A stretch of 64,000 bases of DNA from Alphaproteobacteria bacterium. Its GTDB lineage: Bacteria; Pseudomonadota; Alphaproteobacteria; UBA9219. Shown here piece after piece: positions 13,395 through 61,794 of the stretch. The notes beneath the pieces were generated by a model. That model was not told the DNA's origin, made no database searches, and saw nothing but the letters and a program-made list of their open reading frames with translations. The stretch spans positions 8,337 through 72,336 of the forward strand of contig JAVEZQ010000006.1 in NCBI GenBank assembly GCA_034002905.1, given 5' to 3'. The translations under genes and the position numbers were made by a program. Every line of letters begins with the position of its first letter. Position 1 is the stretch's first letter.

Positions 13395-13676
13395 TCACGC
13401 GGTCTTTCAGTGAATTCTGATAGCGAATCAATAGCCTATCATAGGGAAATCTAGGATAAAAGCGAGGGCCTTTGTGTTTTTTAGGCAGTTTTGACTGCGG
13501 AATGGACAGCGGGAGCCGGCTCCAGCGCGACCTAAATGTGCCACACCCTTAAAAAATAACCCTTTAACGTAATTTTTGGGCTTGAACCGAACTTGTAAAC
13601 TGCCTTTAATGAAAGTGGTTGAAGCCATTTTGACTTTTTTATGGTCCGGCCTGGACTCTTACCTGTGGAGTATATC

Positions 13677-16287: not shown

Positions 16288-16522
16288 CAGAGATATCCTT
16301 CACTTATAGAAAAAATATGCCTAAGGCGCCCCTCTGAAATAGGTTTTTTTCACCTATCCCGTCAAGCCCTTCGTTGGGAAAACAACAGTCTCGGCATGAA
16401 AGGATTAGTGGCCTGTTTTATTAGTCAAATGTTCATAATATAACGATTAAAACAAAGCGGAGTCTCGACCTGAATGGGTGGGAGGGCTCAGGATCGCTGT
16501 GGGCTCAGGAGAGTTGGAAACG

Positions 16523-19504: not shown

Positions 19505-19692
19505 TATGGTTAATAGGGGCCAAAAGGGGTTGTAGCAAGTAATTGCTTCAGGCAAGTTACCCTCTTTGTCACAGATATGAGCGCTACCGCCCTTTTTTGA
19601 GGTGTGATAGTGTTTCGTTATGAGTATGAATAGGCATAAAGTGTTCTTGCATGCCGGGGGCGCGAGATTGAACGTGATTGGGGCTTAAGAAA

Positions 19693-20922
19693 ATGGCTGG
19701 GAGCAACGAAGATCCAACAACAACTTTTCTTTTGGTTTTGGGGGTATTTGGCCTATTGGGTTATGCCGTTTGGTATTTCTTTCGCATAGAGATATTGACC
19801 GCTATCCAATATATCAGGCTTGTTGAGTTGGCTCCTCTGGCATTGTTCAGTGATCACGTCCAATATTGCGTCTCGTGGCTTAAAAATGCCTCTGTGACGA
19901 GTGAAGTTCCCTCGGATGACGTTATTATGGCCACGCGCGGTTGTTTTGGGGCTAGTCGTGTTGCAAGCATGCCCGTCATTGACGCCATGAATTATTATAC
20001 GGTGACGCCCAAGAGTTTGGGAGAAATTGGGCGCTTGCTTGGCTCGTTTGTGCGCTGGCCCTTGGTGATTGCTTGCTGTGGCGTGGCGTATTTCGCTTTG
20101 TACAAGTCCAAGCGCAATGGGTTTCGCGTCAAATATGATCTGGAGGGCTTTATCAAGATTCAGGGATTGGTTTGGCCTATCATTGCGCCTATCGTCAAAT
20201 TTAACCCGGCCAAGGCAAGCTCTCGTGTTCCGGGACAGCTTGTTCCGGCTAAATTGCCGACCTTTGCGGAGGCTCTGTCTCCTGAAGAATGGCTTGCCAT
20301 GCACGTCATTCCCGTCAATAAAAACGTGCCCCAAAAAGAAGCCGTTCATGCGGCTTTCCTCAAGCAGCTTGGGCCGCGCTGGACTGGGATCGACGATTTG
20401 CCGCCTTATATGCGGGCTCTTTTTGCCGCGTTTGCGCTTAAAGGCGCGCAGAAGCGGGATGAAAGCGATGAGTTTTTGGGGCGAATTGCAACTTGTTGGA
20501 GTCCAAAGGGAGGGTTTCGTATGACGCCGCCCATTGCCGCCGAGGTCAAGAAAATTTTGAAGGACCCAGAAATCGGAGGAAAGGCTTTAGAGGTAGCTTC
20601 GAAACATGCTTACCGTACGACGGCGATGTTGGGCGTTTTGAAATGGGCGCGCTTTATGGGGGGTGTTTTGGCTTCGGCAAGCTTCCTGTGGCTGCGTGGG
20701 GTGGATCGTGATTTGTGGTATGCCGCTAACAATTTGGGACGCCGCTCTTTTCATACAGAAGGGGCCGGTGCGCTGGCGCATTTTATGGCCGAGGATTTGG
20801 CCGGCAAGCCTCTGATGGTGCCCCGTCTTGAAACGGCCATTATATCTATCAACAAATATATGGGTGAAAACGCGGTTCAAATACCCCCGTCCGAGAACGT
20901 ACAGCAGAAAGAAGCCGTCTGA
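19693..20922 (+). CDS. icmP: T4BSS coupling-complex membrane protein IcmP/DotM (TrbA family)
   Basis: 409 aa from the ATG at 19693, with N-terminal TM helices (FLLVLGVFGLLGYAVWYFF). The blocks LVWPIIAPIVKFNP and FLWLRGVDRDLWYAANNLGRR...GALAHFMAE match what I recall of DotM. It is in synteny with icmO. Confidence 0.75.
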   Translation: MAGSNEDPTTTFLLVLGVFGLLGYAVWYFFRIEILTAIQYIRLVELAPLALFSDHVQYCVSWLKNASVTSEVPSDDVIMATRGCFGASRVASMPVIDAMNYYTVTPKSLGEIGRLLGSFVRWPLVIACCGVAYFALYKSKRNGFRVKYDLEGFIKIQGLVWPIIAPIVKFNPAKASSRVPGQLVPAKLPTFAEALSPEEWLAMHVIPVNKNVPQKEAVHAAFLKQLGPRWTGIDDLPPYMRALFAAFALKGAQKRDESDEFLGRIATCWSPKGGFRMTPPIAAEVKKILKDPEIGGKALEVASKHAYRTTAMLGVLKWARFMGGVLASASFLWLRGVDRDLWYAANNLGRRSFHTEGAGALAHFMAEDLAGKPLMVPRLETAIISINKYMGENAVQIPPSENVQQKEAV

Positions 20923-20947
20923 AACCAATAATACTTAGGGTGTCGAA

Positions 20948-21496
20948 ATGAAGTTTGTTTTGAAGAATGAGTCCGCAGCAAAGGCCTCTGTTGTGTGGCG
21001 TAACAAAACGCCGTGCCTTCTCGTTCATTTTTACGCCAGCACCCCCCCGATGGTTTGGCAAATGGATTTAGAGAAAGCGTCTAATACAGCGATCTTGCTT
21101 CAGGAAAAAGATGGTCTCTGGTGTTTTGGCTATGGGGAGCCGGGAAAGGATTTTACGGTTGTTGCCAAGTTCAGCAACCGGATTGATGCAGAGGACGCCT
21201 ATCAAAGGATTCAAAAAGTCATCGACAAGGGGGAGGGAATGTCCTTCCGCCGTGTAGCCAATATGATCTTTTATCTTGTGTTGATCTTTTTTATTTTGTC
21301 CCTCTTTTTTGGGCCAAAGGCCCGCGATGCGATGGAGCTCGCGCCGGAAAACGCAGCGGCTCCGGCAACGCCGGCCGTGCAGGGCTTTCAGTTTGGTGGA
21401 GGGGAGCCGCAAAGCGCCCCGGCGGCAGAGGAAGATCAAAGCAAGAAATTTGGTGTTCCGCTGGATGCGGACTCCGTTTTGCCATCAGCGCCTTAA
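20948..21496 (+). CDS. Hypothetical single-pass membrane protein inserted between icmP and icmO
   Basis: 182 aa, comprising a ~100-aa soluble N-domain, one TM helix (MIFYLVLIFFILSLFFG) and an Ala/Pro/Glu-rich tail. It is on the same strand with short gaps to both neighbours (25 nt and 39 nt). I recognised no family. Confidence 0.55.
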   Translation: MKFVLKNESAAKASVVWRNKTPCLLVHFYASTPPMVWQMDLEKASNTAILLQEKDGLWCFGYGEPGKDFTVVAKFSNRIDAEDAYQRIQKVIDKGEGMSFRRVANMIFYLVLIFFILSLFFGPKARDAMELAPENAAAPATPAVQGFQFGGGEPQSAPAAEEDQSKKFGVPLDADSVLPSAP

Positions 21497-21535
21497 GAGA
21501 GGCGACGCGGGCAGCGGAGTTAAGGAGAAGAAGAC

Positions 21536-24115: not shown

Positions 24116-25165
24116 ATGCGCATTCTTCAGATCATGGCTGGACGAGGACAGGGCGGGGCGGAAACCTATTCCGTTGATGTGATGTTGAGTCTGCATGCCG
24201 CTGGTGTGGATCAATGCGTTGTCGTGGCGCCTGATGCCCCCCGCACAGTCGAGCTGATCGCTGCGGGATTGCGTGTGAACACGGACGTTCTGCGTTCACG
24301 CTTTCGCTTTATTCGACGTTGGCGTCTGGCGCAGCTGATTGCAACGGAGAAACCTGACCTTATTCATTGCTGGATGCGTCGGGCGGCTTCGCTTATCCCA
24401 TCTTGGAAAGATGGGCCCGTCATTGGCTGGTTTGGTGGCTATTACGATCCTGCAAACTTTAAGCGATGCACCCAGTTCGTTGGCGTGACGCAGGGGATTG
24501 TCGATCATATGCGGCAGAAAGGCGTCCCCGCCGAACATTCGCACTATGTCCCGACTTTTCCGGATGTGCGGGACGAAGCTCCTGTTGATCGCACCACACT
24601 GGACACGCCGCATGGCGCACCTGTTGTTCTCGCCCTTTCCCGTCTTCATCCCAAAAAGGGGCTCGACACGCTTTTGAAAGCAGCCGCACAAATTGAAGGG
24701 CTCTATGTTTGGCTTGCGGGTGAGGGGCCTCTTCGGCAAGAGCTTGAAAAACTCACGCGTAAGCTTGGCCTTACAGAACGCGTGCGGTTTTTGGGGTGGC
24801 GAACAGATCGGGGGGCGCTTTTGCGTTCCGCTGATATATGCGCTTTGCCGTCTCGTTATGAACCCTTCGGAACCGTTATTCTGGAGGCGTGGGCAGCTGG
24901 CACCCCCTTTGTTGCGGCTATGAGCGCGGGACCTGCGGCGCATGTCCTTGATGGAGAAAATGGGCTGCTTGTCCCTATTGATGATGTGGATGCTCTCACT
25001 TCGGCCCTTCGTCGCGTGATAGAGGATGAGCCTTTGCGCCGCCGCATCATTGTCAACGGGTTTGATACATATTCCCGTACATACACACGTAAAGCGGTTA
25101 CCGAGCGCATCATTGCGTTATACCAAAGGATGATTGCTTCCTTTTCCGGTCGTTCTGCGGTTTGA
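24116..25165 (+). CDS. Glycosyltransferase family 4 (GT-B fold, RfaG-like)
   Basis: 349 aa. The N-terminus is MRILQIMAGRGQGGAE, and the C-terminal EX7E region is EPFGTVILEAWAAGTPFVAA. Confidence 0.8.
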   Translation: MRILQIMAGRGQGGAETYSVDVMLSLHAAGVDQCVVVAPDAPRTVELIAAGLRVNTDVLRSRFRFIRRWRLAQLIATEKPDLIHCWMRRAASLIPSWKDGPVIGWFGGYYDPANFKRCTQFVGVTQGIVDHMRQKGVPAEHSHYVPTFPDVRDEAPVDRTTLDTPHGAPVVLALSRLHPKKGLDTLLKAAAQIEGLYVWLAGEGPLRQELEKLTRKLGLTERVRFLGWRTDRGALLRSADICALPSRYEPFGTVILEAWAAGTPFVAAMSAGPAAHVLDGENGLLVPIDDVDALTSALRRVIEDEPLRRRIIVNGFDTYSRTYTRKAVTERIIALYQRMIASFSGRSAV

Positions 25166-52422: not shown

Positions 52423-52929
52423 GTGACAGACGAAAAGCAACTTCTTACGGATCAAGTGACGGACACGGACAAGGATGTCGCGCCGCGCGCACCAGTTGTT
52501 GTGACGGCGTCGTGGTCGGAACAAGACGAGCTTTTACGTGCGATGTGGCAGGATAAAAAAACACCTGAAGAAATCGCCGCTGCTCTTGGCCGTTCGGTTG
52601 CTGCCATTATGACGCGTGCGGCGCGTTTGGGGTTGCCGCGCCGTATGGCGCCGGGCCGCAAACGTGGATACAAGCGTACGGAGTCTTCACGTAAATCACC
52701 TGTCATGATGGGAGCAGCGCGCGTTCGTGTTCGTGTTTCCACGGCAGATTATGTCGAAGATGAGGATATGCGGCCACGGCCTGAAGTTAAAATGCGCGTA
52801 TGCCTTATGTGTTTAAACAAGTTTCAATCTTTGGGAGCCTTCAATCGCATTTGCCCGTCCTGCAAGGGGTCGGCGGAGTATGCCACGGGCAGCAGCACGC
52901 CGGACTTTACCTTTAAAGTTACGACATGA
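52423..52929 (+). CDS. GcrA-N-terminal-like HTH protein with a C-terminal Cys4 zinc-ribbon
   Basis: 168 aa from a GTG start. The segment WSEQDELLRAMWQDKKTPEEIAAALGRSVAAIMTRAARLGLPRR resembles the GcrA N-terminal DNA-binding segment. The C-terminus CLMCLNKF...ICPSCKG has two CxxC pairs. It lies 89 nt upstream of icmL on the same strand. Confidence 0.5.
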   Translation: MTDEKQLLTDQVTDTDKDVAPRAPVVVTASWSEQDELLRAMWQDKKTPEEIAAALGRSVAAIMTRAARLGLPRRMAPGRKRGYKRTESSRKSPVMMGAARVRVRVSTADYVEDEDMRPRPEVKMRVCLMCLNKFQSLGAFNRICPSCKGSAEYATGSSTPDFTFKVTT

Positions 52930-53018: not shown

Positions 53019-53651
53019 ATGGCACTTTCAGATGCAATTTCCACCGTTTTGTCGCGTAATGTGTTTTATCGGGACGGCTATCGCCTTTTGATGCGGATCA
53101 GCTTGATCCAAGGCATGGCGATTGTCTTGCTGATTGCGGCCGTTATCTCGATGATTCTGTCGATGGACACGCGTTATGTGTATTTTGCCACAACGTCCGA
53201 TGGCCGTATCATCAACATTGTGCCGCTCAATGAGCCCTTCCGTTCGCGTGGATTCGTTATCGCATGGGCAGCAGGCAAGGCCCAAGAGGTCATGCGCTTT
53301 GGTTACAGCGATTTCCGTCAGCGGTTACAGTCTTCTTCTGTCAATTTCACACCTACGGGATGGGAAAGCTTTACAAAAGCGATGCGGGAAGCCCGTATCT
53401 TGGAGGCGATCGAGGCACGCAAACTCACGGTCAACATGCAGATCGAAGCGGCGCCTGAGGTTGAGAAGGCCTATGTTCATGACGGTGTTTATACATGGAT
53501 CCTTCGTTTTCCTGTCACCATTACTTTTGATGGTACTGAAGCGCCCTCAGCCATCTCGGCCAATCTTGTTCTACAGGTTGTTCGTGTTTCGACACTTCAA
53601 AATCCTGAAGGCATTAGTATTGAGCAGTGGATTGCTGTGACGGGGAGATAA
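53019..53651 (+). CDS. icmL: T4BSS inner-membrane protein IcmL/DotI (TraM family)
   Basis: 210 aa, close to the ~212 aa of Legionella IcmL. It shows RNVFYRDGYRLLMR, a TM helix, YFATTSDGRIINIVPLNEP, and the C-terminal VRVSTLQNPEGISIEQWI. An AAGGAG Shine-Dalgarno is present. Confidence 0.85.
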   Translation: MALSDAISTVLSRNVFYRDGYRLLMRISLIQGMAIVLLIAAVISMILSMDTRYVYFATTSDGRIINIVPLNEPFRSRGFVIAWAAGKAQEVMRFGYSDFRQRLQSSSVNFTPTGWESFTKAMREARILEAIEARKLTVNMQIEAAPEVEKAYVHDGVYTWILRFPVTITFDGTEAPSAISANLVLQVVRVSTLQNPEGISIEQWIAVTGR

Positions 53652-53655
53652 CGGC

Positions 53656-54435
53656 ATGACGCCTTCTTCCAAACCACCTGTACCAAACAAGCAAACTGGG
53701 GATGTTGCTCATGTTTCTGGCAAATCGGCGCCGATAAAAAACGGTGAGCAGATAAAGATAAAAACGTCGAAGGTGAAGGAAACAGCACATCGCGCTTTCT
53801 TTTTCTTTCGGGATGATCCGCCGCCACGATCGCAGCAAATTGACGAACATGACGCACACTTACAAATGGAGCGAATAGGTCGTTTGATCAACCGCCAATC
53901 GACAGTTATCGTCGGGTTGATTATCCTTGTGATCACATTGACGCCTTTATTGCATCCGATCCAAAATTACAAGGCACGCAATCCGGATGGGAAGATTACC
54001 GGTCTTGTTCCCCTTATGGAGCCGAACCAGACGGATCAGGCCATATTGTCGTGGGCGGCAACGACGATTACCGAAGTCATGACTTTTGGGTTCGGTGATA
54101 TTGATACGCGTGTTTTGTCCCAGAAAAGCCGGTTTACCGGTGAGGGGTGGGACAGCTTTTTAGAGGCGTTTCGCAAGGAAAGAACTCGTGAAGGCTTTAA
54201 ATCCTCCCAGCTTGTTTTGACCACTGTCCCCACGGATGTTCCTGTTATAACCAAAAAGGGCTTGGATAAAGATGGGGATTATCAGTGGGTTGTTGAGATG
54301 CCTGTGATTATGACCCATACAACGAATGATCGGGTTTCTTCGGTTAGAAAAAGCATCATTCGCTTAACGATCGTCAAGGTTCCTCCTCGCCACAATGTCC
54401 GGGGGATTGGTATCAAACTGTGGTACCAGAAATAG
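53656..54435 (+). CDS. Second IcmL/DotI-family paralog with a ~70-aa basic N-terminal extension
   Basis: 259 aa. The periplasmic domain aligns by eye with the first copy: ILSWAATTITEVMTFGFGDIDTRV...GEGWDSFLEAFR against VIAWAAGKAQEVMRFGYSDFRQRL...PTGWESFTKAMR. It starts 5 nt after the icmL stop. Confidence 0.75.
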   Translation: MTPSSKPPVPNKQTGDVAHVSGKSAPIKNGEQIKIKTSKVKETAHRAFFFFRDDPPPRSQQIDEHDAHLQMERIGRLINRQSTVIVGLIILVITLTPLLHPIQNYKARNPDGKITGLVPLMEPNQTDQAILSWAATTITEVMTFGFGDIDTRVLSQKSRFTGEGWDSFLEAFRKERTREGFKSSQLVLTTVPTDVPVITKKGLDKDGDYQWVVEMPVIMTHTTNDRVSSVRKSIIRLTIVKVPPRHNVRGIGIKLWYQK

Positions 54436-54679
54436 GGTTTTGAATATGGGTTGTTTCTGAAGCAGGATCGCGGGGCATTATAACATGGTTAATGAAAATG
54501 ATAGGAATATCATAATCTTGACGTTATCAAGCCTGTATGAAATATGAAGAACTAGGTGGCGCAACTTGTCTCATAAACTTAATGTTAAGATTGTTTTGGT
54601 GAAAGAGATGAGGATTATCTGGTGTCCGTGTAAACTGATTCGGGGATGTCGTTTGTTTAGTCGCATTAAACAGAATATC

Positions 54680-55783
54680 ATGATGACAACTGTTCTGGGA
54701 ACGGTTGTTGGTGTTTGCCTTTGCGCTGCCACGATGCCGATGGCCATGGCACAAGAGTCTCCACCTTCTCTTTCCGATGCTGTGAAAGCTTCGCTTGCGG
54801 CTGCGACGGCGGTCCCGAAAACCAAAAAGGAAAAAGCGGCTGAGGAAAAAGCGGCTGAAGAACCCGTTGACGGGGGAATTAATTTGCCTGTCACAAATGG
54901 AGATTTACTTGCCGACCAGCTAGAGATGGAAAGACAGGCGCAGGAAGCCGCTGAACGTGCTGCTGAAGAGGAAGCGCAACGCGAGCTGGAACATAATCGC
55001 AAATCATACAAAAAAGCTTCACAGGGTCTTTTGCCATTGTCGCCGGATCAGGTCCGCGATTTCATGAATCGCCTTGAAACAACGCAGGAAGCCGCTCTTC
55101 CGCCACATGCAGGCACTCCGAAAGGGGAGGTCAAGGTTGTGAATCTTTCGTTGGATCCCGGGGTCCAGCCTCCACAGATCAATCTCGCCGCCGGTTATGT
55201 GACGACGATCGATATTATTGATCAGACGGGTGAGCCTTGGCCTATTTTGGATGTTGGCATTGGGGGCAATTTTGAAGTGACGCCGACGCAGGCTGGCTCC
55301 CACGTTGTGCGTGTTGTGCCCTTGAACCGGTATGGGACGGGAAATCTGTCCGTTTTGCTCAAGGGTCTTTCGACCCCTGTTATTTTCAAGCTATCAGCAG
55401 GCGGGCAGAAATATCATATGCGTTTTGACGCCCGCATTCCCAAGCTTGGTCCCAATGCCAAAGCCCCTCTGATCGAGCATCGTCGTCCGTGGCCTATCGC
55501 CGGGGACAAGATTATCATGATGTTCCTTGAGAACGCCCCTCCGGCCGATGCCAAGCGGTTGTCCGTCGGTGGCGTGGATGCCCGTACAATGGCGTGGCAG
55601 CTTAATGATCGGGTTTATGTTCGTACGCCTCTGTCTCTTTTGTCTCCGGCCTGGAATGCAAGTGCGTCATCGGCCGATGGCATGACCGTCTATGAAATTG
55701 GCGATGCGCCAGTTTTGCTGATGTCAGACAATGGTGCTATGGTAAGGGCGCGTCTTATGCGGGAAGATACTCATGACAAATAA
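54680..55783 (+). CDS. icmK: T4BSS outer-membrane core protein IcmK/DotH (TraN family)
   Basis: An ATG at 54680 gives the signal peptide MMTTVLGTVVGVCLCAATMPMAMA. The conserved block reads NLSLDPGVQPPQINLAAGYVTTIDIIDQTGEPWPI...YGTGNLSVLLKGLSTPVIFKL...RFDARIPKLGPNA. Confidence 0.88.
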   Translation: MMTTVLGTVVGVCLCAATMPMAMAQESPPSLSDAVKASLAAATAVPKTKKEKAAEEKAAEEPVDGGINLPVTNGDLLADQLEMERQAQEAAERAAEEEAQRELEHNRKSYKKASQGLLPLSPDQVRDFMNRLETTQEAALPPHAGTPKGEVKVVNLSLDPGVQPPQINLAAGYVTTIDIIDQTGEPWPILDVGIGGNFEVTPTQAGSHVVRVVPLNRYGTGNLSVLLKGLSTPVIFKLSAGGQKYHMRFDARIPKLGPNAKAPLIEHRRPWPIAGDKIIMMFLENAPPADAKRLSVGGVDARTMAWQLNDRVYVRTPLSLLSPAWNASASSADGMTVYEIGDAPVLLMSDNGAMVRARLMREDTHDK

Positions 55784-57248
55784 TACAGACGAATTTGATC
55801 AGGAACAGTTTGAAGCCGTGGACGCGCAGTCCGAGGAAGAGAACAACTTTGCCCCGCGTCAAAACGGCTGGGACGCATGGCGAAACAAACCTGTCGTCAA
55901 GCTGCTTGTGATCATGACAATTGTCGGTGTTGCGCTGGCCGGCGCCTTAGGGGTTTTTTCAGAAGAAAAGAAAACGGACTTTTCAAAAGTCGCAGAGGTG
56001 CCTCGCTTGAACCAACCCCCCGGTGGTACGGCGACACAGTTCTTTATCGAACAGAACGAACAAGCTAATACCGAACGAGCACAGAAGGCACTAACAGTCG
56101 GGGGGAGTTCTCTTCCTACGCCTGCCGGACGTGATATAACGGAACTTCTTGATAAGAAAAAGGACCCCATGGTCGAGTTCCGTGCTGAAACGGAGCGCTT
56201 GAAGAAAGAATTTGAGGCAGAGCAACGCCGTAATGCACAGCGTGTTCAGATGCTTGAGCAGAAGGTCCAGCAAAAGAGGGGCGGACCGCAGCAAGATGAT
56301 TCTTTGGCCAAGGCCATGCAAAAGCAAATGCAGGAAATGATGGAATACTGGGCGCCCAAGGGGATGAAAGCTGTGGCTGGCGTTGCGCCTAATGAAGAGA
56401 CGAAAGTTCAAAACTGCGAAGGATGCGAGGCAAAGGTCGAGCAGGCCTCTTTCAACAAGATGACAGCGCCAAAGGTTATGGTTCCTGCTGGGACTGTTAA
56501 TTACATGCAGTTGCTGACTGAGGCGAACTCTGATGTACCGGGTCCTATTTTGGCTCAAATCTTGTCCGGCCCTCTCGCGGGCGGTCGTGCAATCGGTACC
56601 TTTCAGGTTATGAACGACTATCTTGTCATGAACTTTAGTAGCGTTAGCTATAAGGGTAAGAACTATGCCATCAGCGGCTTAGCTCTGGATCCCGACACGA
56701 CCTTAGGCGGCATGGCAACAGAAGTTGACCATCGCTATTTTGTTCGTGTTCTCCTTCCGGCAGCGGCCTCATTTGTAAGTGCTTTCGGTAATACGTTGGC
56801 CGACACTGATACGACGACTACGGTTTCGGACAATGCTGTTCTGGTGGATCAATCCAGAAAAGGGACAAAAGAAGCCATTTATGCCGGTATTGGATCTGTT
56901 GGTCAGACCATGTCTCAGTTCTTTAGGGACGAGGCAAATAGAACCAAGACCTTGGTACGCGTTGCCGTGGGCACGCCGATGGGCCTTTTCTTTACATCGC
57001 CGGTTTATGAAAACGGAACGCGTTACAAAGGTGCCGAAGAACTGGCTGGTGAACAGCAGGCAGTCCCGAGCGCTTTGATGCAGCAACCCTATTATCCTCG
57101 GGGCGTCGCAACGTCTGCACAGCAGGGCCCCTATCCTGCAGCCGTGATGCAGCCTTATGCTAATACTCCCTATGGGGCAACTACATCGGGATATGGGCTA
57201 ACGCAAAGTCAAAGGAATATGATTAACTCATTGACTTCAGGCCAATAG
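55773..57248 (+). CDS. icmE: T4BSS core protein IcmE/DotG (VirB10/TrbI-like C-terminal domain)
   Basis: 491 aa with an N-terminal TM helix (LLVIMTIVGVALAGALGVF), a coiled-coil region and a TrbI/VirB10-like C-terminus (VPAGTVNYMQLLTEANSDVPGPILAQILSGPLAGGRAIG...). It overlaps icmK by 11 nt. Confidence 0.82.
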   Translation: MTNNTDEFDQEQFEAVDAQSEEENNFAPRQNGWDAWRNKPVVKLLVIMTIVGVALAGALGVFSEEKKTDFSKVAEVPRLNQPPGGTATQFFIEQNEQANTERAQKALTVGGSSLPTPAGRDITELLDKKKDPMVEFRAETERLKKEFEAEQRRNAQRVQMLEQKVQQKRGGPQQDDSLAKAMQKQMQEMMEYWAPKGMKAVAGVAPNEETKVQNCEGCEAKVEQASFNKMTAPKVMVPAGTVNYMQLLTEANSDVPGPILAQILSGPLAGGRAIGTFQVMNDYLVMNFSSVSYKGKNYAISGLALDPDTTLGGMATEVDHRYFVRVLLPAAASFVSAFGNTLADTDTTTTVSDNAVLVDQSRKGTKEAIYAGIGSVGQTMSQFFRDEANRTKTLVRVAVGTPMGLFFTSPVYENGTRYKGAEELAGEQQAVPSALMQQPYYPRGVATSAQQGPYPAAVMQPYANTPYGATTSGYGLTQSQRNMINSLTSGQ

Positions 57249-57270
57249 TTGACAAAGTAGGGAAGAAATA

Positions 57271-57299
57271 AAAAAGGCCGCAAGTATGCGGCCTTTTTT
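57271..57299 (+). terminator. Rho-independent terminator after icmE
   Basis: The sequence aaaaaggccgca-agta-tgcggcctttttt forms a 7-bp GC-rich stem followed by T6. Confidence 0.8.
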
Positions 57300-57459
57300 C
57301 ATCTGGTGGACAGGGGCAACAATTTGCTTCAATCTTTTTGTGAAATGTTTTAGCTTTCGGGAGCTTTGGTTAATTGCTTGGCCTTTGGCATATATTTCCT
57401 TCGTTTCGGCGCGAGGAGTTCTGTGATTGTCATATCAGGCGGGTTAAAGGGAGATAGTG

Positions 57460-58917
57460 ATGAGCGATAAGGAAAATGGAGAGGAATTAGACTTGGCTGC
57501 AGGGGAAGAGACCCTTTCGCCGGATGCCCAATCCGAGGCTGAAGCCTGGCATGAAAATTTGCCTCCCGAAGATGATTTTCAGGATCAAACGGATTTCAGT
57601 GAAGATTCTGTCGACGAAGATACGTTATCGGATTCGGAAATGCCTTTGGATCAGGAAGGCAAACGGCGAGGACGTAACGTGTTTCTTGCCGCCATCGTTG
57701 TTGGCTTTGTTGTTCTTGGGGCTTTTGTTTATCTTCAGTTTACCCCTAAAGCCTCGACGACGGGCAGTTTCCAGCCCATCGCTTCTGTCTTGAGTGTTAA
57801 GGATATTAACAAGCCTATCGCGCCGACAAAACCAAGCACAGAAAATGAAGAGAGCATTCCCGGGCTGTCCGGCAAAACAGAGCGCGTTGATATGATCTCG
57901 CTTTATCAGGCCGCCAAGAGCAAAGGCCCTCAGCCTTCTGCCACGGCCCTTCCGATGCTGAAAGAGGAAGGCCAAGAATCTGACAAGCAGAAGAGCGAGG
58001 AGATACAAATATCTTCTATCGTTGCGGGCAATGACGTTATCACCCAAGATGATAAAAAGCAGTCTGATCTCGATCAACTTCACAAGGCCGCACAAGACGG
58101 TATTATCGCTCAGAAGACCGAGAATACATCGTCGCCCAAGAAGGAACCTTCTTTGGCCCAGAAAAAAGAAGTCACGCCAGCAATTGAAGCTGTTGAGTCT
58201 CAGCCCGCGGCGCCGACTCCTTCACAAGCCCAAGGAACGGTCACCGCGCCCATGCCTGACGCTGTGGTACAAGACAGCCTCCCTGCAAAGGACGGAGCCC
58301 TTTTGTTAAAGGCTGTAGAAAAGCCTTTGTCTTCTTCACCTGTCGTGGACGAGGCGCAGGCCAAGCGAACGGAAGCCGCTGAAAAACGTCTTAAAGAGAT
58401 GGAATCCCAAATGGATGCGCTTCAAAAATCCTTGGCTGAAGCTAACGAAAGAAATGCCCAGCTGGTGTCCAAGCTTGAAACTGTCAGCGCCAAACCGGTC
58501 TTGGCCGCTGCCGACCTAAAGTCGGATACAAAGGAAGTCGCTGGCTCCACCGCATCAGCGCCAGCCAAGAAGCCTGCCCCAGAGGTTACAGCTGAAGAGG
58601 TGAAGTCGTCTTCTACGGCCCAGACCAAGCCGGCTGTGAAAGCAACAACCAGCAAAAAGACGGCCAAAAAGAAAGAAACGAAAACCGCAGCCACCAAGAC
58701 AGGCTTGGCAAATAAAGCGGAAAAACAAAAGGTTAGTAATGTCTGGGTCTTGCGGGCGGTGACGCCGGATGCAGCCTGGATTGCCACAAGCCCTGTTGAT
58801 CCTGAATTGCGCCAGATCGCTATCGGCGAAGAGGCCCCTGGGATCGGGGTTGTCAAAGAGATAACTCGCAAGGGCGAGGCGTGGCAGGTTGTAGGTGAAA
58901 AAGGCGTTATAAAGTAA
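57460..58917 (+). CDS. icmG: T4BSS core protein IcmG/DotF-like, expanded
   Basis: 485 aa. It has an acidic N-terminus, one TM helix (VFLAAIVVGFVVLGAFVYLQF) and a ~330-aa low-complexity/coiled-coil linker. The conserved C-terminal beta domain reads VWVLRAVTPDAAWIATSPVDPELRQIAIGEEAPGIGVVKEI...GEKGVIK. Its position between icmE and icmC matches Legionella. Confidence 0.7.
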   Translation: MSDKENGEELDLAAGEETLSPDAQSEAEAWHENLPPEDDFQDQTDFSEDSVDEDTLSDSEMPLDQEGKRRGRNVFLAAIVVGFVVLGAFVYLQFTPKASTTGSFQPIASVLSVKDINKPIAPTKPSTENEESIPGLSGKTERVDMISLYQAAKSKGPQPSATALPMLKEEGQESDKQKSEEIQISSIVAGNDVITQDDKKQSDLDQLHKAAQDGIIAQKTENTSSPKKEPSLAQKKEVTPAIEAVESQPAAPTPSQAQGTVTAPMPDAVVQDSLPAKDGALLLKAVEKPLSSSPVVDEAQAKRTEAAEKRLKEMESQMDALQKSLAEANERNAQLVSKLETVSAKPVLAAADLKSDTKEVAGSTASAPAKKPAPEVTAEEVKSSSTAQTKPAVKATTSKKTAKKKETKTAATKTGLANKAEKQKVSNVWVLRAVTPDAAWIATSPVDPELRQIAIGEEAPGIGVVKEITRKGEAWQVVGEKGVIK

Positions 58918-58940
58918 CGTGCTTTGGTAGCCTAACGAGA

Positions 58941-58971
58941 AAAAAAGGGGGGCGTTTGCCTCCCTTTTTTT
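58941..58971 (+). terminator. Rho-independent terminator after icmG
   Basis: The sequence aaaaaaggggggc-gttt-gcctcccttttttt forms a 7-bp stem with one G-U pair, followed by T7. Confidence 0.7.
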
Positions 58972-59064
58972 CTTGAAATTAAACAGGTTTTTAATTGTTT
59001 GGGTCACAATGAGTGTGAGATACTGTCCATAGGACATTTTAGACAAATTGATTGGAGATTTGAG

Positions 59065-60069
59065 ATGTCATCGCAACTCAAGCTCGCCGGCACGGCCATT
59101 AAGCGCGTATTGACAAAAAAGACCGGACTTAACGGCGCCTTTTTACTTTCCATTCTTGTTTTCGCGGCATGGCCATCTTCTGCTTGGGCTTTTGAATATG
59201 TGGCCGCGACATTGGGCGGTATTATTTGTAATGCGAGATTTTCTTCGGAGGCTTACCCGCATTTTATGGCGGCGCTTGCCTATATTATGGGGGCCATATT
59301 AATCCTTCGTGGCGGCTTGTCGATGAAGCGTGCAAGCGACAGCCCTCAAAATTCACCGGTGATCCCGGTTGCCCAAATGATTGGCGGCGCTTTTTTGATT
59401 TCGCTGCCTATTGCCGTTGGCATGATGCAACGTACGATTTTCGGTGATGTCGGTGCGGGCAGTCCGGCCATGTGTAATTTCGATAATCCGCCAAACAATG
59501 GGCAATTGGGCCTTGATGTCATGGCTCGCAATTTTGTGAGCAACATCCACTCTCCGATCTTTAGCCTGCTTTCCGTGCTCTGTTATGGCATCGGCACTTT
59601 TTATATTCTGGCCGGTCTTTTAAAAGCTTCAAGAACAGGGACAGATCCACGTGCGTCTTCCCCTAAGGATATCATAACCTATTTGGTCATAGGGGCCCTT
59701 CTGGTCACCATTGGCGGCTCGATCTCGATGATCCTCAGGACGTTGTTTGGTGATGGCGGAGATATGGCAAACATGTCGCAAGATTTTGTCGGCGTCAACT
59801 GGCTGCCGATTGTCGGGAGTGGCGCAGACACCGATGCCATGGATGACACGATTCGGTCCTTATTGGCCTTTGTCCAAATCGTGGGCGGCATCGCCTTTGT
59901 TCGCGGCTGGATGCTGTTGAAGGCGGCGGTTGAAGGGGCGCCGGCCAAGACGGCTCAGGCGATCACTCATATTGTCGGGGGGGCGATGGCCATTAATATC
60001 AACCAGATGCTGGTTGTTTTTGATAATACTTTTGGGACGAACATCCTGAATTCATGGGGGGATGGTTAG
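59065..60069 (+). CDS. icmC: IcmC/DotE-like polytopic membrane protein built from three IcmD-like hairpin modules
   Basis: 334 aa from the ATG at 59065, with GGAGA upstream. It contains three repeats of [TM helix, G.L.(L/M)K + polar loop, TM helix, ..FG]: ...ILILRGGLSMKRASDSPQNSP...RTIFG; ...FYILAGLLKASRTGTDPRASSP...RTLFG; ...IAFVRGWMLLKAAVEGAPAKTAQ...NTFG. It is in the icmC position. Confidence 0.65.
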   Translation: MSSQLKLAGTAIKRVLTKKTGLNGAFLLSILVFAAWPSSAWAFEYVAATLGGIICNARFSSEAYPHFMAALAYIMGAILILRGGLSMKRASDSPQNSPVIPVAQMIGGAFLISLPIAVGMMQRTIFGDVGAGSPAMCNFDNPPNNGQLGLDVMARNFVSNIHSPIFSLLSVLCYGIGTFYILAGLLKASRTGTDPRASSPKDIITYLVIGALLVTIGGSISMILRTLFGDGGDMANMSQDFVGVNWLPIVGSGADTDAMDDTIRSLLAFVQIVGGIAFVRGWMLLKAAVEGAPAKTAQAITHIVGGAMAININQMLVVFDNTFGTNILNSWGDG

Positions 60070-60133
60070 GGGTTGGTGAAGAGCAGAGAAAAGCTGTTAT
60101 TTAATCAATAAACAGCACAAATTTTAGGTGAAA

Positions 60134-60148
60134 TTAATATCTTGTTAA
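60134..60148 (+). promoter_or_regulatory. TTAA-N7-TTAA box (CtrA-type / PmrA-type response-regulator site) upstream of icmD
   Basis: The sequence is ttaa-tatcttg-ttaa. The first half, TTAATATc, also matches the Legionella/Coxiella PmrA half-site TTAATATT. It lies about 160 nt upstream of the icmD ATG, inside a 239-nt AT-rich spacer. Confidence 0.4.
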
Positions 60149-60308
60149 GGGAGTGGAGCGAGAATTTATAGTAGGTTGGAAAATAAAGGGTTATCCCTCG
60201 AAACTAATTAGAAAATATTGATTTTGGGGTTTCTCAGGACTTAGTGTGGTGATATAGGAAGCTAGGCAAGAATTAATCAGTTGTGTAATATCCAGTAGGA
60301 GGAAGGCC

Positions 60309-60689
60309 ATGAAAACAGCAATGATAGACAAAATCGTCAAGTTTGGCGTCTTGTCGGCGATAATCGCCGTCGCGGTGCCTGAAATGTCTTTTGCCGAAGA
60401 TACGCTCGGTGCTGCGATCAACAACATTCGTACGGAAGAAATGCAGGCTGTGCCTGATACGGTGGCGGCGGTTGCCTATATCATCGGTGCGGTATTGGTT
60501 GTATCCGGCGCTTTGAGCTTGAAGAAGCATGCCGAGAGCCCCGCTCAGGAAAATATGGGCAAAGGCATCGGTCGTCTCGCCGCTGGCGGTGCGATCATTG
60601 GTTTGCCGGCTTTGACCGATTTCATCAGAAATTCGGCACACGTCGGTGGTGATAATGTTGCGTTCACCCCCTTCGATGCAACGTTTTAA
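60309..60689 (+). CDS. icmD: IcmD/DotP-like small membrane protein, copy 1
   Basis: 126 aa. It has a signal peptide ending MSFA, then two TM helices joined by the loop LSLKKHAESPAQENMG (compare Legionella IcmD KFKQHKDNPTQ). A GGAGGAAGG Shine-Dalgarno is present. Confidence 0.75.
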   Translation: MKTAMIDKIVKFGVLSAIIAVAVPEMSFAEDTLGAAINNIRTEEMQAVPDTVAAVAYIIGAVLVVSGALSLKKHAESPAQENMGKGIGRLAAGGAIIGLPALTDFIRNSAHVGGDNVAFTPFDATF

Positions 60690-60711
60690 TTTACAATCAA
60701 GAGGAAGCAAA

Positions 60712-61080
60712 ATGATGGATAAAATTGTAAAGTTTGGTTTGTTGTCAGCGATTATCGCTGTCGCAATGCCTGAGCTGACATTTGCAGATGACTCGCTTGG
60801 TGCTGCGATCAACTCGGTGCGTACGGAAGAAATGCAGGCTGTGCCTGATACGGTGGCGGCGGTTGCCTATATCGTCGGTGCGGTTTTGGTCGTATCCGGC
60901 GCTTTGAGCTTGAAGAAGCACGCCGAGAGCCCTGCTCAGGAAAATATGGGCAAAGGCATCGGTCGTCTTGCCGCTGGCGGTGCGATCATTGGCTTGCCGG
61001 CTTTGACCGAGTTCATCAGAAATTCGGCGCACGTCGGTGGTGATAATGTTGCGTTCACCCCCTTCGATGCAGCGTTCTAA
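60712..61080 (+). CDS. icmD: IcmD/DotP-like small membrane protein, copy 2 (tandem duplicate)
   Basis: 122 aa from the ATG at 60712, with AGAGGAAG upstream. The mature part differs from copy 1 at only 7 residues. The track ORF start at 60646 overlaps copy 1. Confidence 0.75.
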   Translation: MMDKIVKFGLLSAIIAVAMPELTFADDSLGAAINSVRTEEMQAVPDTVAAVAYIVGAVLVVSGALSLKKHAESPAQENMGKGIGRLAAGGAIIGLPALTEFIRNSAHVGGDNVAFTPFDAAF

Positions 61081-61095
61081 GTTGCTGAGTTGCTG

Positions 61096-61794
61096 ATGGC
61101 CATTCTTCCTATAACCCTTGGTGTCCGGCGCAAGTCGGATGCCAAGGGTCGTTCTAAAAAAAACGGTTTCCCTTCAAAATCCGATATTGAAAAAGTGCTG
61201 TGGCGCGATGCTTTCGCGTGCCGTTGCTGCGGATTTGTCTCAAAGAAATTTCAGCGTGTGATCCCGCTTTGCATTTTGCCTTCGCAGGAAAAGGCGGCAG
61301 ATAACGAGTATGTTACTGTTTGCGCCATGTGCGAGATGACGGCCATGCTGGATCGAGCTGGCGTAACGGGAGCTGGAAATATTATCTGGTTGCCTGAACT
61401 TACTCAGGCAGAACTAAATCATGCGGTACGCGCTCTTTACATCGCAGTGAACTGTAACGATGAAACATTGAAAAAATCGGCGGCTCGGACGCTTGAAGTT
61501 TTGTCCGCGCGTCGGGCTGAGGCAAAGAAACGTCTTGGGACAGATGATCCTTCGATTCTTGCGACAGCCTTTTATGAACGGGTTAAGGCCGAACCCTATG
61601 CCCGCCGTGCCGAGACCATGGAGGGCCTTCGCTTTCTGGCAAATGACCGTTATGTGATGCGTCAGAACGGACAGGAAGTGGATGTCTTTCCCCAGATGTT
61701 GGCTTATTGGACCTCGCCTGAGGGTGCTTTTGCAAAGCTGCCAACAAGTGAATGGATGTCTCTTTTTGAAAAAGCCGGGACAGCAGCTCAATAA
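61096..61794 (+). CDS. icmJ: T4BSS coupling-complex zinc-binding protein IcmJ/DotN
   Basis: 232 aa from the ATG at 61096. The cysteine pairs CRCCGF and CAMCE sit in the arrangement remembered for DotN (CxxC...CxxC). It is in the position after icmD, as in Legionella. Confidence 0.75.
   Translation: MAILPITLGVRRKSDAKGRSKKNGFPSKSDIEKVLWRDAFACRCCGFVSKKFQRVIPLCILPSQEKAADNEYVTVCAMCEMTAMLDRAGVTGAGNIIWLPELTQAELNHAVRALYIAVNCNDETLKKSAARTLEVLSARRAEAKKRLGTDDPSILATAFYERVKAEPYARRAETMEGLRFLANDRYVMRQNGQEVDVFPQMLAYWTSPEGAFAKLPTSEWMSLFEKAGTAAQ

Follow-up and report, generated by a model that had tools for sequence, protein, structure and literature searches.

A type IVB secretion system resident in the chromosome of an uncultured alphaproteobacterial relative of Micavibrio

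Introduction

The type IVB secretion systems (T4BSS) include the Dot/Icm system of Legionella and the conjugation systems of IncI plasmids. A first-pass annotation of a 64,000-nucleotide stretch of alphaproteobacterial DNA (the window) described a Dot/Icm-type gene cluster and suggested that the system might be undescribed; in keeping with this, our literature search found no paper linking Dot/Icm or T4BSS with Micavibrio or Micavibrionales. The cultured predator Micavibrio aeruginosavorus ARL-13 is reported to lack a type IV secretion system (PMC3189940), so that not all Micavibrio-like bacteria have the T4BSS trait. Here the locus is compared with the systems of Legionella and of the IncI1 plasmid R64.

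Results

Host and genomic context

The window shared 99.8-99.9% identity with contig SAAE01000009.1 (107.8 kb) of MAG INTA.CYC.025 (SAAE01) from a dairy-wastewater pond, which its authors placed by GTDB-Tk in c__Alphaproteobacteria, o__Micavibrionales_A (PMC8929167 supplements); NCBI labels this MAG only as 'Proteobacteria bacterium'. The T4BSS genes lie on the same contig as AddAB, a DivL-type kinase, tol-pal, ruvABC, flagellar genes and lexA, with an alphaproteobacterial GTTC-N7-GTTC box 53 bp upstream of lexA. Relatives with the same synteny, binned independently, were named by their depositors as Micavibrio sp., Rhodospirillaceae or Alphaproteobacteria MAGs. The alphaproteobacterial host proposed in the first-pass annotation is thus supported, as an uncultured relative of predatory Micavibrio in the order Micavibrionales_A.

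Around the T4BSS genes, the window and ~23 kb of SAAE01000009.1 flanks held only housekeeping, flagellar and envelope genes. Pfam and NCBIfam scans and gene tables agreed with the earlier description of the flanks (gltX upstream of the envelope cluster, an antiporter and groEL downstream) and revealed no relaxase, integrase, IS element or tRNA in the ~87 kb of contig and no transposase in the window. The GC content of the T4BSS genes (~0.50) was close to that of their surroundings (~0.52).

Envelope module

The nine ORFs of the cluster first described (53019-61794) were all present on the + strand, most with Pfam, NCBIfam or PDB matches, and the motifs quoted for them (RNVFYRDGYR, YFATTSDGRI, NLSLDPGV...VIFKL, LKKHAESPAQ and CRCCGF...CAMCE) were all found in the translations. 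Together with a gene directly upstream, the features of this module are:

52423..52929, + strand: GcrA-like protein, 168 aa, Cys pairs in its C-terminal part; candidate for a regulator dedicated to the locus
53019..53651, + strand: IcmL/DotI, 210 aa (PF11393 DotI/IcmL, E 3e-42)
53656..54435, + strand: second, longer IcmL/DotI paralog, 259 aa (PF11393, E 4.8e-33)
54566..55783, + strand: DotH/IcmK outer-membrane core protein (PF12293 DotH/IcmK, E 1.5e-73)
55773..57248, + strand: DotG/IcmE/TraO (VirB10-like) core protein, 491 aa (PF03743 TrbI, E 1e-10)
57457..58917, + strand: protein in the DotF/IcmG/TraP position, 486 aa (by position)
58999..60069, + strand: DotE/IcmC/TraQ-like polytopic membrane protein (PF20535 DUF6750, E 7.5e-8)
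60309..60689, + strand: DotP/IcmD/TraR-like small membrane protein, copy 1, 126 aa (family alignment, hhalign)
60712..61080, + strand: DotP/IcmD/TraR-like protein, copy 2, 122 aa (tandem duplicate of copy 1)
61090..61794, + strand: DotN/IcmJ (NF038221 IcmJ/DotN, E 1e-20, 74 bits, cut-off 100)

The GcrA-like protein matched PF07750 GcrA below threshold (E 1.2e-4, 22.9 bits, cut-off 26.9); in 21 related loci, even those without gltX as neighbour, icmL1 is immediately preceded by a homolog. The 210-aa IcmL/DotI scored 154 bits with NF038072 (cut-off 175) and, in PDB, 72 bits with Legionella DotI vs 38 bits with R64 TraM; its 259-aa paralog is the second gene in all relatives and the positional analogue of DotJ/IcmM. 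DotH/IcmK likely starts at 54680, which makes it a 367-aa protein with a signal peptide; it matched DotH in PDB 6x62 (E 2e-45, 159 bits) and R64 TraN (87 bits). At 491 aa, DotG/IcmE is much smaller than its 1048-aa Legionella counterpart; it matched TrbI with its C-terminus and NF033900 DotG with 157 bits over profile positions 727-1005 of 1008 only (TraO, 97 bits), its residues 156-411 aligning with residues 781-1045 of PDB DotG (E 8e-23).

The 486-aa protein, earlier called DotF/IcmG-like with a conserved C-terminal β domain, gave no Pfam, NCBIfam or PDB match. Its N-terminus, which includes a transmembrane helix, is conserved, whereas the low-complexity middle varies; the C-terminus is a conserved domain of ~60 aa, in which a 20-sequence alignment revealed an invariant W..LR..AW..G..G.G..W pattern and a single-sequence AF2 model placed β strands at low confidence. 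The last 53 columns aligned end-to-end with the R64 TraP C-terminus in a weak hhalign match (E 0.0028, probability 11%), the sole basis on which a DotF/IcmG identity may tentatively be proposed.

The DotE-like protein (334 aa, 59065-60069, in the NCBI gene call) scored 32.8 bits with DUF6750 (cut-off 27) and matched NF033883 TraQ over residues 175-346 (E 9e-10). It is about twice as long as R64 TraQ (175 aa), both of its halves resemble IcmD-like proteins, and BLAST ties its orthologs to the IcmD paralogs. As for the two IcmD genes annotated earlier, the tandem copies are real, sharing 90% protein identity and forming a 300-nt direct repeat of 89% DNA identity, and copy 2 is a recent tandem duplicate; relatives carry one to three copies. 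An 18-sequence alignment of this family showed an invariant H-E-P loop (LKKHAENPAQ), and its profile gave only a weak hhalign match to R64 TraR (E 7.8e-4 over 93 columns). DotN/IcmJ (232 aa, 61096-61794, in the NCBI gene call) aligned with L. pneumophila DotN (PDB 5x1h, E 2e-15), including both Cys pairs.

ATPase/coupling module

The T4BSS genes of the window are not limited to these nine. A second + strand block at 16478-23968, overlooked in the first-pass annotation, encodes dotO/icmB, dotM/icmP and dotL/icmO, with a conserved 182-aa gene between the last two; these are given with one tentative further gene on either side:

13641..14264, + strand: OmpA-family lipoprotein (OmpA C-terminal domain), candidate DotK/IcmN-like peptidoglycan anchor (tentative)
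16478..19504, + strand: DotO/IcmB/TraU-type (VirB4-class) ATPase, 1008-aa ORF (Walker A motif AQPGSGKS)
19678..20922, + strand: DotM/IcmP, coupling-complex subunit (PF23127 DotM_C, E 2e-47)
20948..21496, + strand: conserved 182-aa protein between dotM and dotL, one predicted transmembrane helix
21536..23968, + strand: DotL/IcmO type IV coupling protein, 810 aa (PDB 6sz9_A match)
24116..25165, + strand: GT4 glycosyltransferase (Pfam Glycos_transf_1) immediately after dotL, possible accessory gene (tentative)

DotO (993 aa from 16523 in the NCBI gene call) had no sequence match in Pfam, NCBIfam or PDB; it shared 28% identity with R64 TraU over its full length (E 7.6e-103; phmmer 336 bits) and 43-44% identity with ATPases on alphaproteobacterial plasmids. 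DotM scored 180 bits with NF033890 (cut-off 230) and matched L. pneumophila DotM (PDB 6sz9_B, E 1e-28). The gene between dotM and dotL recurs at the same position in relatives L038, L039 and L046 (160-182 aa); its product had no Pfam or NCBIfam match, and the single-sequence AF2 model was unusable (pLDDT 52). DotL matched L. pneumophila DotL (PDB 6sz9_A) with E 7.7e-127 and 428 bits, residues 6-603 vs 8-596, giving 39.5% identity over 618 aa, whereas R64 TrbC gave 28% identity and 179 phmmer bits. No alignment was obtained between the DotL tail (residues 604-810) and the adaptor-binding tail of its Legionella counterpart, so that a Legionellales-specific substrate-coupling apparatus is not evident. 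NCBI lists an identical protein as 'type IV secretion protein IcmO', and the NCBI and JGI pipelines already name some of these proteins IcmO or IcmK.

The OmpA-family lipoprotein had a weak NF038223 IcmN/DotK match (E 1.7e-6) among many generic OmpA matches; an OmpA protein is encoded directly upstream of dotO in L038, whereas opposite-strand yifB intervenes in the window. A gene 65% identical to the glycosyltransferase follows dotL in L039 and does not do so in L038, L046 or L047.

Gene order and affinity

The L-K-E-G-C-D-J order, described earlier as that of Legionella/Coxiella, is indeed present; it is shared with IncI1 traM-N-O-P-Q-R-(S)-T and is therefore not specific to either genus, being as IncI-like as Legionella-like. 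Some relatives have icmJ-dotO-dotM-x-dotL contiguous, and on the 630-kb contig of L046 the same strand goes on to encode a lytic transglycosylase, a DsbC/G-like protein and DotD, DotC and DotB, the last three thus belonging to one contiguous 30-kb locus. Another relative encodes a 910-aa DotA (TIGR04346, 285 bits). In the ~87 kb available for the window's genome no DotA, DotB, DotC, DotD or IcmT was seen, and no IcmS, IcmW, LvgA, IcmQ, IcmX or IcmF/DotU homolog was detected in any sequence examined. All window T4BSS ORFs are full length relative to their orthologs, and the window encodes most of a T4BSS.

Profile searches recovered Dot/Icm families, though every NCBIfam Dot/Icm equivalog score fell below its cut-off. 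By sequence comparison the window proteins resemble Legionella Dot/Icm more than R64, with phmmer bits (Legionella/R64) of 428/179 for DotL, 104/42 for DotM, 159/87 for DotH, 84/39 for DotG, 72/59 for DotI and 60/none for DotN. In a neighbour-joining tree of DotL, the window clade (100/100 bootstraps; named members all alphaproteobacterial MAGs) and the Legionellales (99/100) were never nested in each other. The T4BSS is therefore not a recent import from Legionellales.

Conservation across the lineage

Close IcmK relatives occurred in 28 GTDB species representatives, and dozens of related MAGs carry the same T4BSS genes next to the same housekeeping genes. The order flgE-lexA-comEC-gltX-gcrA-like-icmL...icmJ-groEL was kept between genomes at only 50-80% protein identity, and more distant relatives have icmK-icmE-dotF-like triplets amid secA, pgm, queA, tgt, metG, ybeY and similar genes. 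GltX distances correlated with those of IcmL, IcmK and IcmE (Mantel r 0.77-0.87, p about 5e-4). The conserved gltX/groEL position, the co-variation with GltX and the lack of relaxase, integrase and IS in ~87 kb support a T4BSS that is resident in the chromosome and anciently and vertically inherited, rather than the conjugative element against which the first-pass annotation had also argued.

Discussion

We consider the locus a resident, anciently inherited T4BSS that probably acts as a contact-dependent protein translocator. It could instead be a DNA-transfer machine, a chromosome-captured I-type conjugation or mobilisation system moving the chromosome or mobilisable elements with a relaxase encoded elsewhere. 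Each recognised component has a counterpart in IncI1, R64 traM-traU ... trbA-trbB-trbC and traH-I-J are colinear with the ancestral order, DotL has generic T4CP DNA-transfer domains, and plasmid homologs typed as conjugative number in the thousands. Our reading has against it two features shared with IncI conjugation systems: the ancestral gene order and, in L046, genes for a TrbN-like transglycosylase and a DsbC-like protein. The Dot/Icm components that were not detected, the unaligned DotL tail, the subthreshold NCBIfam scores, a more distant DotA homolog adjoining an integrase and the lack of a type IV secretion system reported for ARL-13 also count against it. So do thin-pilus genes: the first-pass annotation saw none in the window, and L018 has R64-like ones (PilO, T2SSE, T2SSF, PilS) directly upstream of the cluster. 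Against DNA transfer, no relaxase, nikA/nikB, oriT-associated gene, integrase or replication gene was found in the ~87 kb of contig or in the gene tables of six related loci; the genes are scattered among core genes and differently placed per species, making transfer as a unit impossible; and both the co-divergence with GltX and the affinity to Legionella Dot/Icm rather than R64 speak against it. We regard this alternative as unlikely.

We think it most improbable that the locus derives from an old mobile element, no longer works and is decaying in place. It is fragmented in the window's genome and more so in distant relatives, where only the icmK-icmE-dotF-like triplets stay together, and several components were unseen; I-type gene sets also occur on alphaproteobacterial plasmids, including fragmentary remnants between IS elements. 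However, 15/15 genes are intact and full length, both reading frames of the duplicated DotP-like gene are open, relatives keep DotA, DotB, DotC and DotD, and identities of 40-82% among core proteins from many species imply purifying selection. There is hardly any likelihood of a binning or assembly artefact, with the contig stemming from a Legionellales genome or plasmid and wrongly assigned. INTA.CYC.025 is a draft MAG with 9% estimated contamination, which counts against our reading, and its NCBI label is unspecific; yet independent assemblies reproduced the contig, alphaproteobacterial markers share it, independently binned relatives have the same synteny, and DotL falls outside the Legionellales clade.

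On our reading, an ancestral single locus has split in the window's genome into the ATPase/coupling and envelope modules. By homology to the solved Legionella machine, DotH and DotG with DotC and DotD encoded elsewhere would form the outer-membrane and periplasmic core. The inner-membrane platform would be built from DotA, the DotI paralogs and the DotE-like and DotP-like proteins. Energy for assembly and transport would come from DotO with DotB, and DotL, DotM and DotN would select substrates as the coupling complex. We infer that the window's genome also carries DotA, DotB, DotC and DotD, and that on contact the machine most likely delivers proteins into a target cell, which may be a protist host or bacterial prey. 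An injection machine of the same kind as the host-manipulating one of Legionella, found in a relative of Micavibrio, suggests a second large bacterial lineage whose way of life rests on delivering proteins into other cells.

Envelope module and gene order

Nine consecutive ORFs on one strand were confirmed by ORF calling at window positions 53019-61794, where the first-pass annotation had placed a resident Dot/Icm core cluster of an alphaproteobacterial chromosome, and all the motifs that it quoted were found in the translations. In profile searches six of the nine proteins were clearly assigned, whereas the evidence was weaker for the 486-aa protein that had been called IcmG and for the two called IcmD. 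The two IcmL/DotI paralogs matched PF11393 in the Pfam profile search (E 3e-42 and 4.8e-33), with Legionella DotI found in a sequence search of the PDB (E 6e-19), and DotH/IcmK matched PF12293 (E 1.5e-73) and the PDB Legionella DotH (E 2e-45). The 491-aa DotG/IcmE/TraO protein was recognized by its TrbI/VirB10-like C-terminus, scoring 157 bits with NF033900, 97 bits with TraO and E 8e-23 with the PDB Legionella DotG. The protein at the IcmC position is a TraQ/DUF6750-type membrane protein that passed the DUF6750 cut-off and matched TraQ with E 9e-10, and IcmJ/DotN gave E 1e-20 with NF038221 (74 bits vs a cut-off of 100) and E 2e-15 with PDB DotN, both Cys pairs being aligned.

The 486-aa protein at the DotF position had no family match, and its search against PDB sequences returned nothing useful. 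Its conserved last 53 residues aligned end to end, weakly (E 0.0028, probability 11%), with the C-terminus of TraP from the IncI1 conjugative plasmid R64, and the AF2 single-sequence model of this C-terminus had a pLDDT of ~52. The two DotP-like genes called IcmD are tandem duplicates, 90% identical, whose family profile matched R64 TraR (E 7.8e-4). Position, size class and topology of the DotF-, DotE- and DotP-like proteins all fit small or bitopic membrane components. At window 60309-61080 the DNA indicates that the DotP/IcmD-like gene was duplicated in tandem recently (300 nt, 89% identity); relatives have between one and three copies, and the DotE-like protein itself resembles two DotP/IcmD-like modules fused together.

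The gene order icmL-K-E-G-C-D-J(-B) is indeed that of Legionella Dot/Icm, as had been claimed, but it is also colinear with R64. Promoter-like matches were no commoner than chance in a promoter scan. A strong hairpin lies between icmE and the DotF-like gene at window 57270-57299, with a perfect 13-bp stem, a GC-rich core and flanking A and T runs; it looks like a bidirectional terminator, and marks the boundary of an icmK-icmE unit that is kept together in distant relatives.

Coupling and ATPase module

The inventory in the first-pass annotation was incomplete, having missed the energizing and coupling half of the system, which is encoded on the + strand of the same window at 16478-23968 by the following genes.

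16478-19504, + strand: DotO/IcmB, 1008 aa, Walker A; 28% identity with R64 TraU across the whole length (E 7.6e-103)
between dotO and dotL within 16478-23968, + strand: DotM/IcmP; PF23127 E 2e-47, 6sz9_B E 1e-28
20948-21496, + strand: gene of 182 aa between dotM and dotL, no family
after the 182-aa gene within 16478-23968, + strand: DotL/IcmO; 6sz9_A E 7.7e-127, 39.5% identity over 618 aa

For DotO, the search against PDB sequences gave nothing useful. The homology of DotL with Legionella DotL ends at residue 603 of 810, and the tail formed by the last ~200 residues does not align with, and is not homologous to, the adaptor-binding tail of the Legionella protein. Between the two modules lie pta-ackA, tol-pal, ruvABC, tsaD, gpsA, lexA, opgC, flgEKL, comEC and gltX.

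In several relatives dotO comes immediately after icmJ, with dotM, a gene of 160-182 aa and dotL next in line, and the two clusters of the window are therefore the halves of one former locus. In L046, a related locus on a 630-kb contig, dotL is followed by a one-strand run of five family-less genes (no NCBIfam match for their products), a TrbN-like lytic transglycosylase, a DsbC/G-like protein and a 97-aa gene, which then reaches DotD (PF16816; NF033882, 111 bits), DotC (PF16932; 32% identical to TraI) and DotB (T2SSE; TraJ-like). A DotA of 910 aa was found in another related locus, L041 (TIGR04346, 285 bits vs a cut-off of 100), and a metagenome scan with the partial DotA of the termite-gut locus L018 as query recovered full DotA genes, where a homolog search with this query had given a single fragment. 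DotA/TraY, DotB/TraJ, DotC/TraI and DotD/TraH were all absent from the window and its ~23 kb flanks and present in relatives. Since the relatives supply these four proteins, the lineage appears, judging from the genes, to possess the full conserved core of a type IVB secretion system (T4BSS). Within the window itself, the features of T4BSS (MPF_I) membership comprise a DotO-type ATPase, DotL with DotM, DotH with DotG, DotI and DotN.

Relationship to Legionella, IncI1 and plasmid systems

Affinity was measured as phmmer bits of each component against L. pneumophila Dot/Icm and against IncI1 R64. All components compared scored higher with Legionella, whose Dot/Icm is thus the closest characterized system by sequence.

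Phmmer scores of window components (bits; Legionella, R64)
DotL: 428, 179
DotM: 104, 42
DotH: 159, 87
DotG: 84, 39
DotI: 72, 59
DotN: 60, none

The window shares with Legionella DotO, DotM, DotL, DotN, DotI, DotH and the DotG C-terminus, together with DotF, DotE and DotP by position, and in both the genes are chromosomal and split into regions amid housekeeping genes. The systems differ in that dotM and dotL follow dotO in the window but precede icmL in Legionella, that DotG has 491 aa compared with 1048 aa and matches the C-terminal part only, and that the second DotI paralog is full length where Legionella has the short DotJ. The DotF-position protein of the window lineage (400-550 aa) is not recognized by profiles. 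None of the Legionella proteins IcmS, IcmW, LvgA, IcmQ, IcmR, IcmX, IcmV, IcmF and DotU was found in the sequences read here; for IcmS and IcmW this includes a scan of the proteins from the window, its flanks and the contiguous L046 locus. The NCBIfam Dot/Icm equivalog cut-offs were all missed (bits/cut-off: IcmL 154/175, DotM 180/230, IcmJ 74/100, DotG 157/750), as were those of the IncI1 families (TraO 97/225, TraQ 39/80, TrbC 338/800).

One-to-one counterparts in R64/ColIb-P9 are TraM, N, O, (P), Q, (R), T, U, TrbA and TrbC, and the ancestral order of the lineage is colinear with R64 (traM...traU, trbA-x-trbC, traH-I-J). Further likenesses to IncI1 are the DsbC-like and lytic transglycosylase genes of one relative and the thin-pilus-type genes of another. 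Identity to the R64 proteins is only 22-31%, however, and the DotE-like protein of the window is about twice the length of TraQ. The NikAB relaxase, oriT region, plasmid backbone, exclusion gene and shufflon of R64 were not seen in the window system, and unlike those of R64 its genes are flanked by, and co-diverge with, core chromosomal genes.

Within the same bacterial class, plasmid I-type sets occur on Methylosinus trichosporium OB3b pOB3b1/2, the Methylorubrum extorquens AM1 megaplasmid and Bosea pBSY19_1, and in Rhizobium and Roseomonas, with DotH ~34% and DotO and DotL 43-44% identical to the window proteins. The sets inspected were partial, lying amid IS6 transposases, integrases and toxin-antitoxin genes or beside primase, prepilin-peptidase and methylase genes. 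The X-T4SS of Xanthomonadales, which appears among the references of a review on contact-dependent predation (PMC12428579), offers a functional analogy only, as a chromosomal T4SS injecting toxins into bacterial prey or competitors; its architecture is of the VirB/D4 type (type IVA), and homology is limited to the shared ATPase and VirB10 folds.

The DotL family is large, with 866 clusters (50% identity) at E<1e-30; a neighbor-joining tree was built using 472 core columns and 100 bootstraps. The window DotL fell in a clade of 17 representatives recovered in 100/100 bootstraps, the named members of which are all alphaproteobacterial MAGs. Legionella DotL grouped with a protein from a ‘Legionellales bacterium’ MAG and three unnamed representatives (99/100) and was never nested in the window clade. 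The tree places the window DotL outside the Legionellales group, and a recent transfer from that order was rejected on this basis. R64 fell far outside. The Bosea DotO/DotL region, considered as the closest alphaproteobacterial relative, was likewise rejected: BLAST found no DotH, DotG or DotI there, and its DotL belongs to a different clade.

Host genome and chromosomal residency

The window was 99.8-99.9% identical to NCBI contig SAAE01000009.1 (107,784 bp) and matched a Logan contig of run SRR8327732 at 100% identity. Exact-sequence searches with IcmJ (234-aa ORF) and the 367-aa IcmK matched no record, and the source contig was found through DotL, the antiporter and AddA. SAAE00000000 is MAG INTA.CYC.025 from facultative stabilization ponds of dairy wastewater (4.19 Mb, 89% complete, 9% contaminated), classified by GTDB-Tk as c__Alphaproteobacteria, o__Micavibrionales_A (PMC8929167 and supplements). 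The contig carries AddAB, a DivL-type kinase and lexA, with a GTTC-N7-GTTC box 53 bp upstream of lexA; the pattern occurs once, which is not above chance, and is meaningful only by its position upstream of this gene. The alphaproteobacterial assignment made at first pass therefore stands, on the MAG classification together with these markers.

Residency in the chromosome, as opposed to carriage on a conjugative element, had also been proposed, and agrees with the lack of mobility genes, the conserved chromosomal context and co-divergence with GltX. Gene tables and Pfam/NCBIfam scans revealed no relaxase, integrase or transposase in the window and its ~23 kb flanks, no relaxase Pfam family was present in the gene tables of the window contig and related loci, and tblastn with R64 NikA and NikB found nothing at E<0.01, either in the window or in the other loci fetched. 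No sign of a plasmid or ICE location (replication, partition, integrase, IS, tRNA target site) was found in the window and flanks, the window contains no tRNA gene, and neither it nor its flanks hold a thin (type IVb) pilus gene cluster. The flanking genes are all housekeeping genes with synteny kept across species, and the GC content of the secretion genes is unremarkable.

When each GTDB species was represented by one genome, close IcmK relatives turned up at 28 loci, in MAGs labeled by their depositors as Micavibrio sp., Rhodospirillaceae, ‘Bdellovibrionales’ or Alphaproteobacteria, and a protein search with IcmK gave 489 homologs at E ≤ 1e-5, the best 120 of which were 57-92% identical. 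The context flgE-lexA-comEC-gltX-gcrA-like-icmL...icmJ-groEL is shared by relatives although the proteins are just 50-80% identical. Deeper-branching relatives have the system in pieces (icmK-icmE-dotF-like; dotA alone; dotL alone) amid core genes such as secA, pgm, queA, tgt, acnA, tyrS, gyrB/parE, metG, ybeY, recQ, rnhA and suf genes. Pairwise GltX distances in 12 genomes correlated with those of IcmL, IcmK and IcmE (r 0.77-0.87, Mantel p ~5e-4). Context, synteny, absence of mobility genes, GC content and the GltX correlation all fit a fixed chromosomal trait with a long vertical inheritance, slowly scattered by rearrangement.

Two loci elsewhere in the family have a different setting. In the termite-gut MAG locus L018 (WREW01000001.1, 884-7345), R64-like thin-pilus (type IVb) genes lie directly upstream of the gcrA-like-icmL cluster on the same strand; they encode PilO, a 647-aa T2SSE ATPase, a T2SSF protein and a PilS-type pilin, and occur in no other fetched locus. 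In L044 (1586-6208), from a more distant relative whose DotA is 50% identical, dotA has a DUF736 gene and a tyrosine integrase as neighbors, so mobile elements may still carry some members of the wider family.

Accessory genes and neighbors

The genes associated with the locus and specific to the lineage in comparison with Legionella are a GcrA-like gene, the dotM-dotL spacer gene and, in some genomes, a GT4 glycosyltransferase gene after dotL; an OmpA lipoprotein gene also accompanies the locus in some genomes.

52423-52929: GcrA-like protein, 168 aa; N-terminal match to GcrA below the threshold, two Cys pairs in the C-terminal part

In 21 related loci, including some where gltX is not adjacent, a homolog of this protein is encoded immediately upstream of icmL, and it is a candidate for a regulator dedicated to the secretion genes. 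The fast-evolving spacer gene (160-182 aa; window 20948-21496 and, in related MAGs, L038 9468-9980, L039 9365-9886 and L046 9506-9988) always lies between dotM and dotL, where R64 has trbB; the AF2 single-sequence model of the 182-aa protein had a pLDDT of ~52, and a PADLOC scan of the family-less proteins gave no matches.

Other neighbors were recorded. An OmpA-family lipoprotein gene lies near dotO (window 13641-14264), with a counterpart directly upstream of dotO in L038 (4117-4827); its product may correspond to DotK/IcmN, or be no more than a Pal-like protein. A 492-aa protein encoded between flgL and a metallophosphatase gene (window 46389-47867) is 51% identical in the related locus L008 and had no NCBIfam or PADLOC match. 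On the same contig, ~5-9 kb past the window end (flanking stretch L035, 144-5200, + in window orientation), four consecutive genes encode secreted proteins with no family and no NCBIfam match, adjoining an Ivy-family lysozyme-inhibitor gene: a 420-aa protein with an SLT-like FHESGG motif, a 213-aa protein with the same C-terminal region, and two Cys-rich paralogs of 489 and 536 aa. In the flank ~7-10 kb before the window start (L037, 21132-23564), a gene running off the stretch encodes a 2080-aa protein with a Peptidase_S74 (tail-fibre chaperone-type) domain, a putative giant surface or adhesin-like protein. On an 823-kb contig of a relative, a patatin-like phospholipase gene adjoins the dotL-GT4 pair (L039, 13604-15046). 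Patatin-like phospholipases are a known class of Legionella effector, and by this analogy the gene would be only a lead.

Proposed function

On balance the machine is probably a translocator of proteins acting on cell contact rather than a conjugation apparatus, because no relaxase is linked to it, its genes are scattered among core genes and its vertical history is long. By homology to the Legionella structures, DotH and DotG would form part of an envelope-spanning core; the two DotI paralogs with the DotE-like and DotP-like proteins would make up an inner-membrane platform, DotO would serve as a VirB4-class motor and DotL, DotM and DotN as the substrate-coupling complex. As no IcmS/IcmW-type adaptors were found and the DotL tail does not align, substrate recognition may differ from that in Legionella and may proceed via DotM, DotN and the lineage-specific 160-182-aa protein.

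The same genes could instead serve DNA transfer with a relaxase encoded elsewhere, an unlikely reading to which the IncI-like gene order, the thin-pilus genes beside the cluster in one termite-gut relative and the integrase beside a distant DotA lend some weight, against the points just given for protein translocation. That the system is a decaying remnant is considerably less probable, the ORFs being intact and conserved, and misbinning hardly comes into consideration in view of the contig's own markers and the independent assemblies.

Beyond the preferred reading as a protein translocator, it is conceivable, and put forward tentatively, that the whole uncultured order (Micavibrionales_A and allied MAG lineages) has had a domesticated T4BSS since its origin, independently of Legionellales, as its main tool for exploiting other cells. 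Relatives of the window have been recovered from sludge, from drinking-water and groundwater systems, from a sulfidic cave and from termite gut, habitats in which protists and bacterial prey are both abundant. The target could be bacterial prey, since the nearest cultured relatives are epibiotic bacterial predators, and predation by means of a T4BSS would then be seen for the first time. M. aeruginosavorus ARL-13, an epibiotic predator in culture, is reported to be without any T4SS (PMC3189940). Alternatively, the order may represent an unrecognized radiation of bacteria living in association with protists, in parallel with Legionellales.

Novelty and significance

The suggestion that the system may be undescribed held up in a literature search, which found no paper linking Dot/Icm or T4BSS to Micavibrio, Micavibrionales or Micavibrionales_A, but NCBI and JGI records already auto-annotate these genes as IcmO, IcmK or DotH-family proteins. 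In reviews, effector-type T4BSS are confined to Legionellales, Piscirickettsia and Fangia. Such effector-translocating systems are treated as a signature innovation of Legionellales and a few neighboring Gammaproteobacteria, and have been used to date and explain the origin of the Legionellales intracellular lifestyle (PMC8896642, PMC11338181).

The system described here has clear lineage-specific features, and bears on the evolution of host- or prey-directed secretion. If a second deep lineage, in a different class, has the machine as a fixed part of its chromosome, the conversion of an I-type conjugation apparatus into a resident machine would have occurred more than once. With its own conserved accessory genes and no IcmS/IcmW-type adaptors seen, the lineage also gives an independent comparison of which components protein translocation needs. 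Finally, it marks a widespread group known only from MAGs of water, sludge and termite gut as probable cell-to-cell interactors, whose hosts or prey can be sought.
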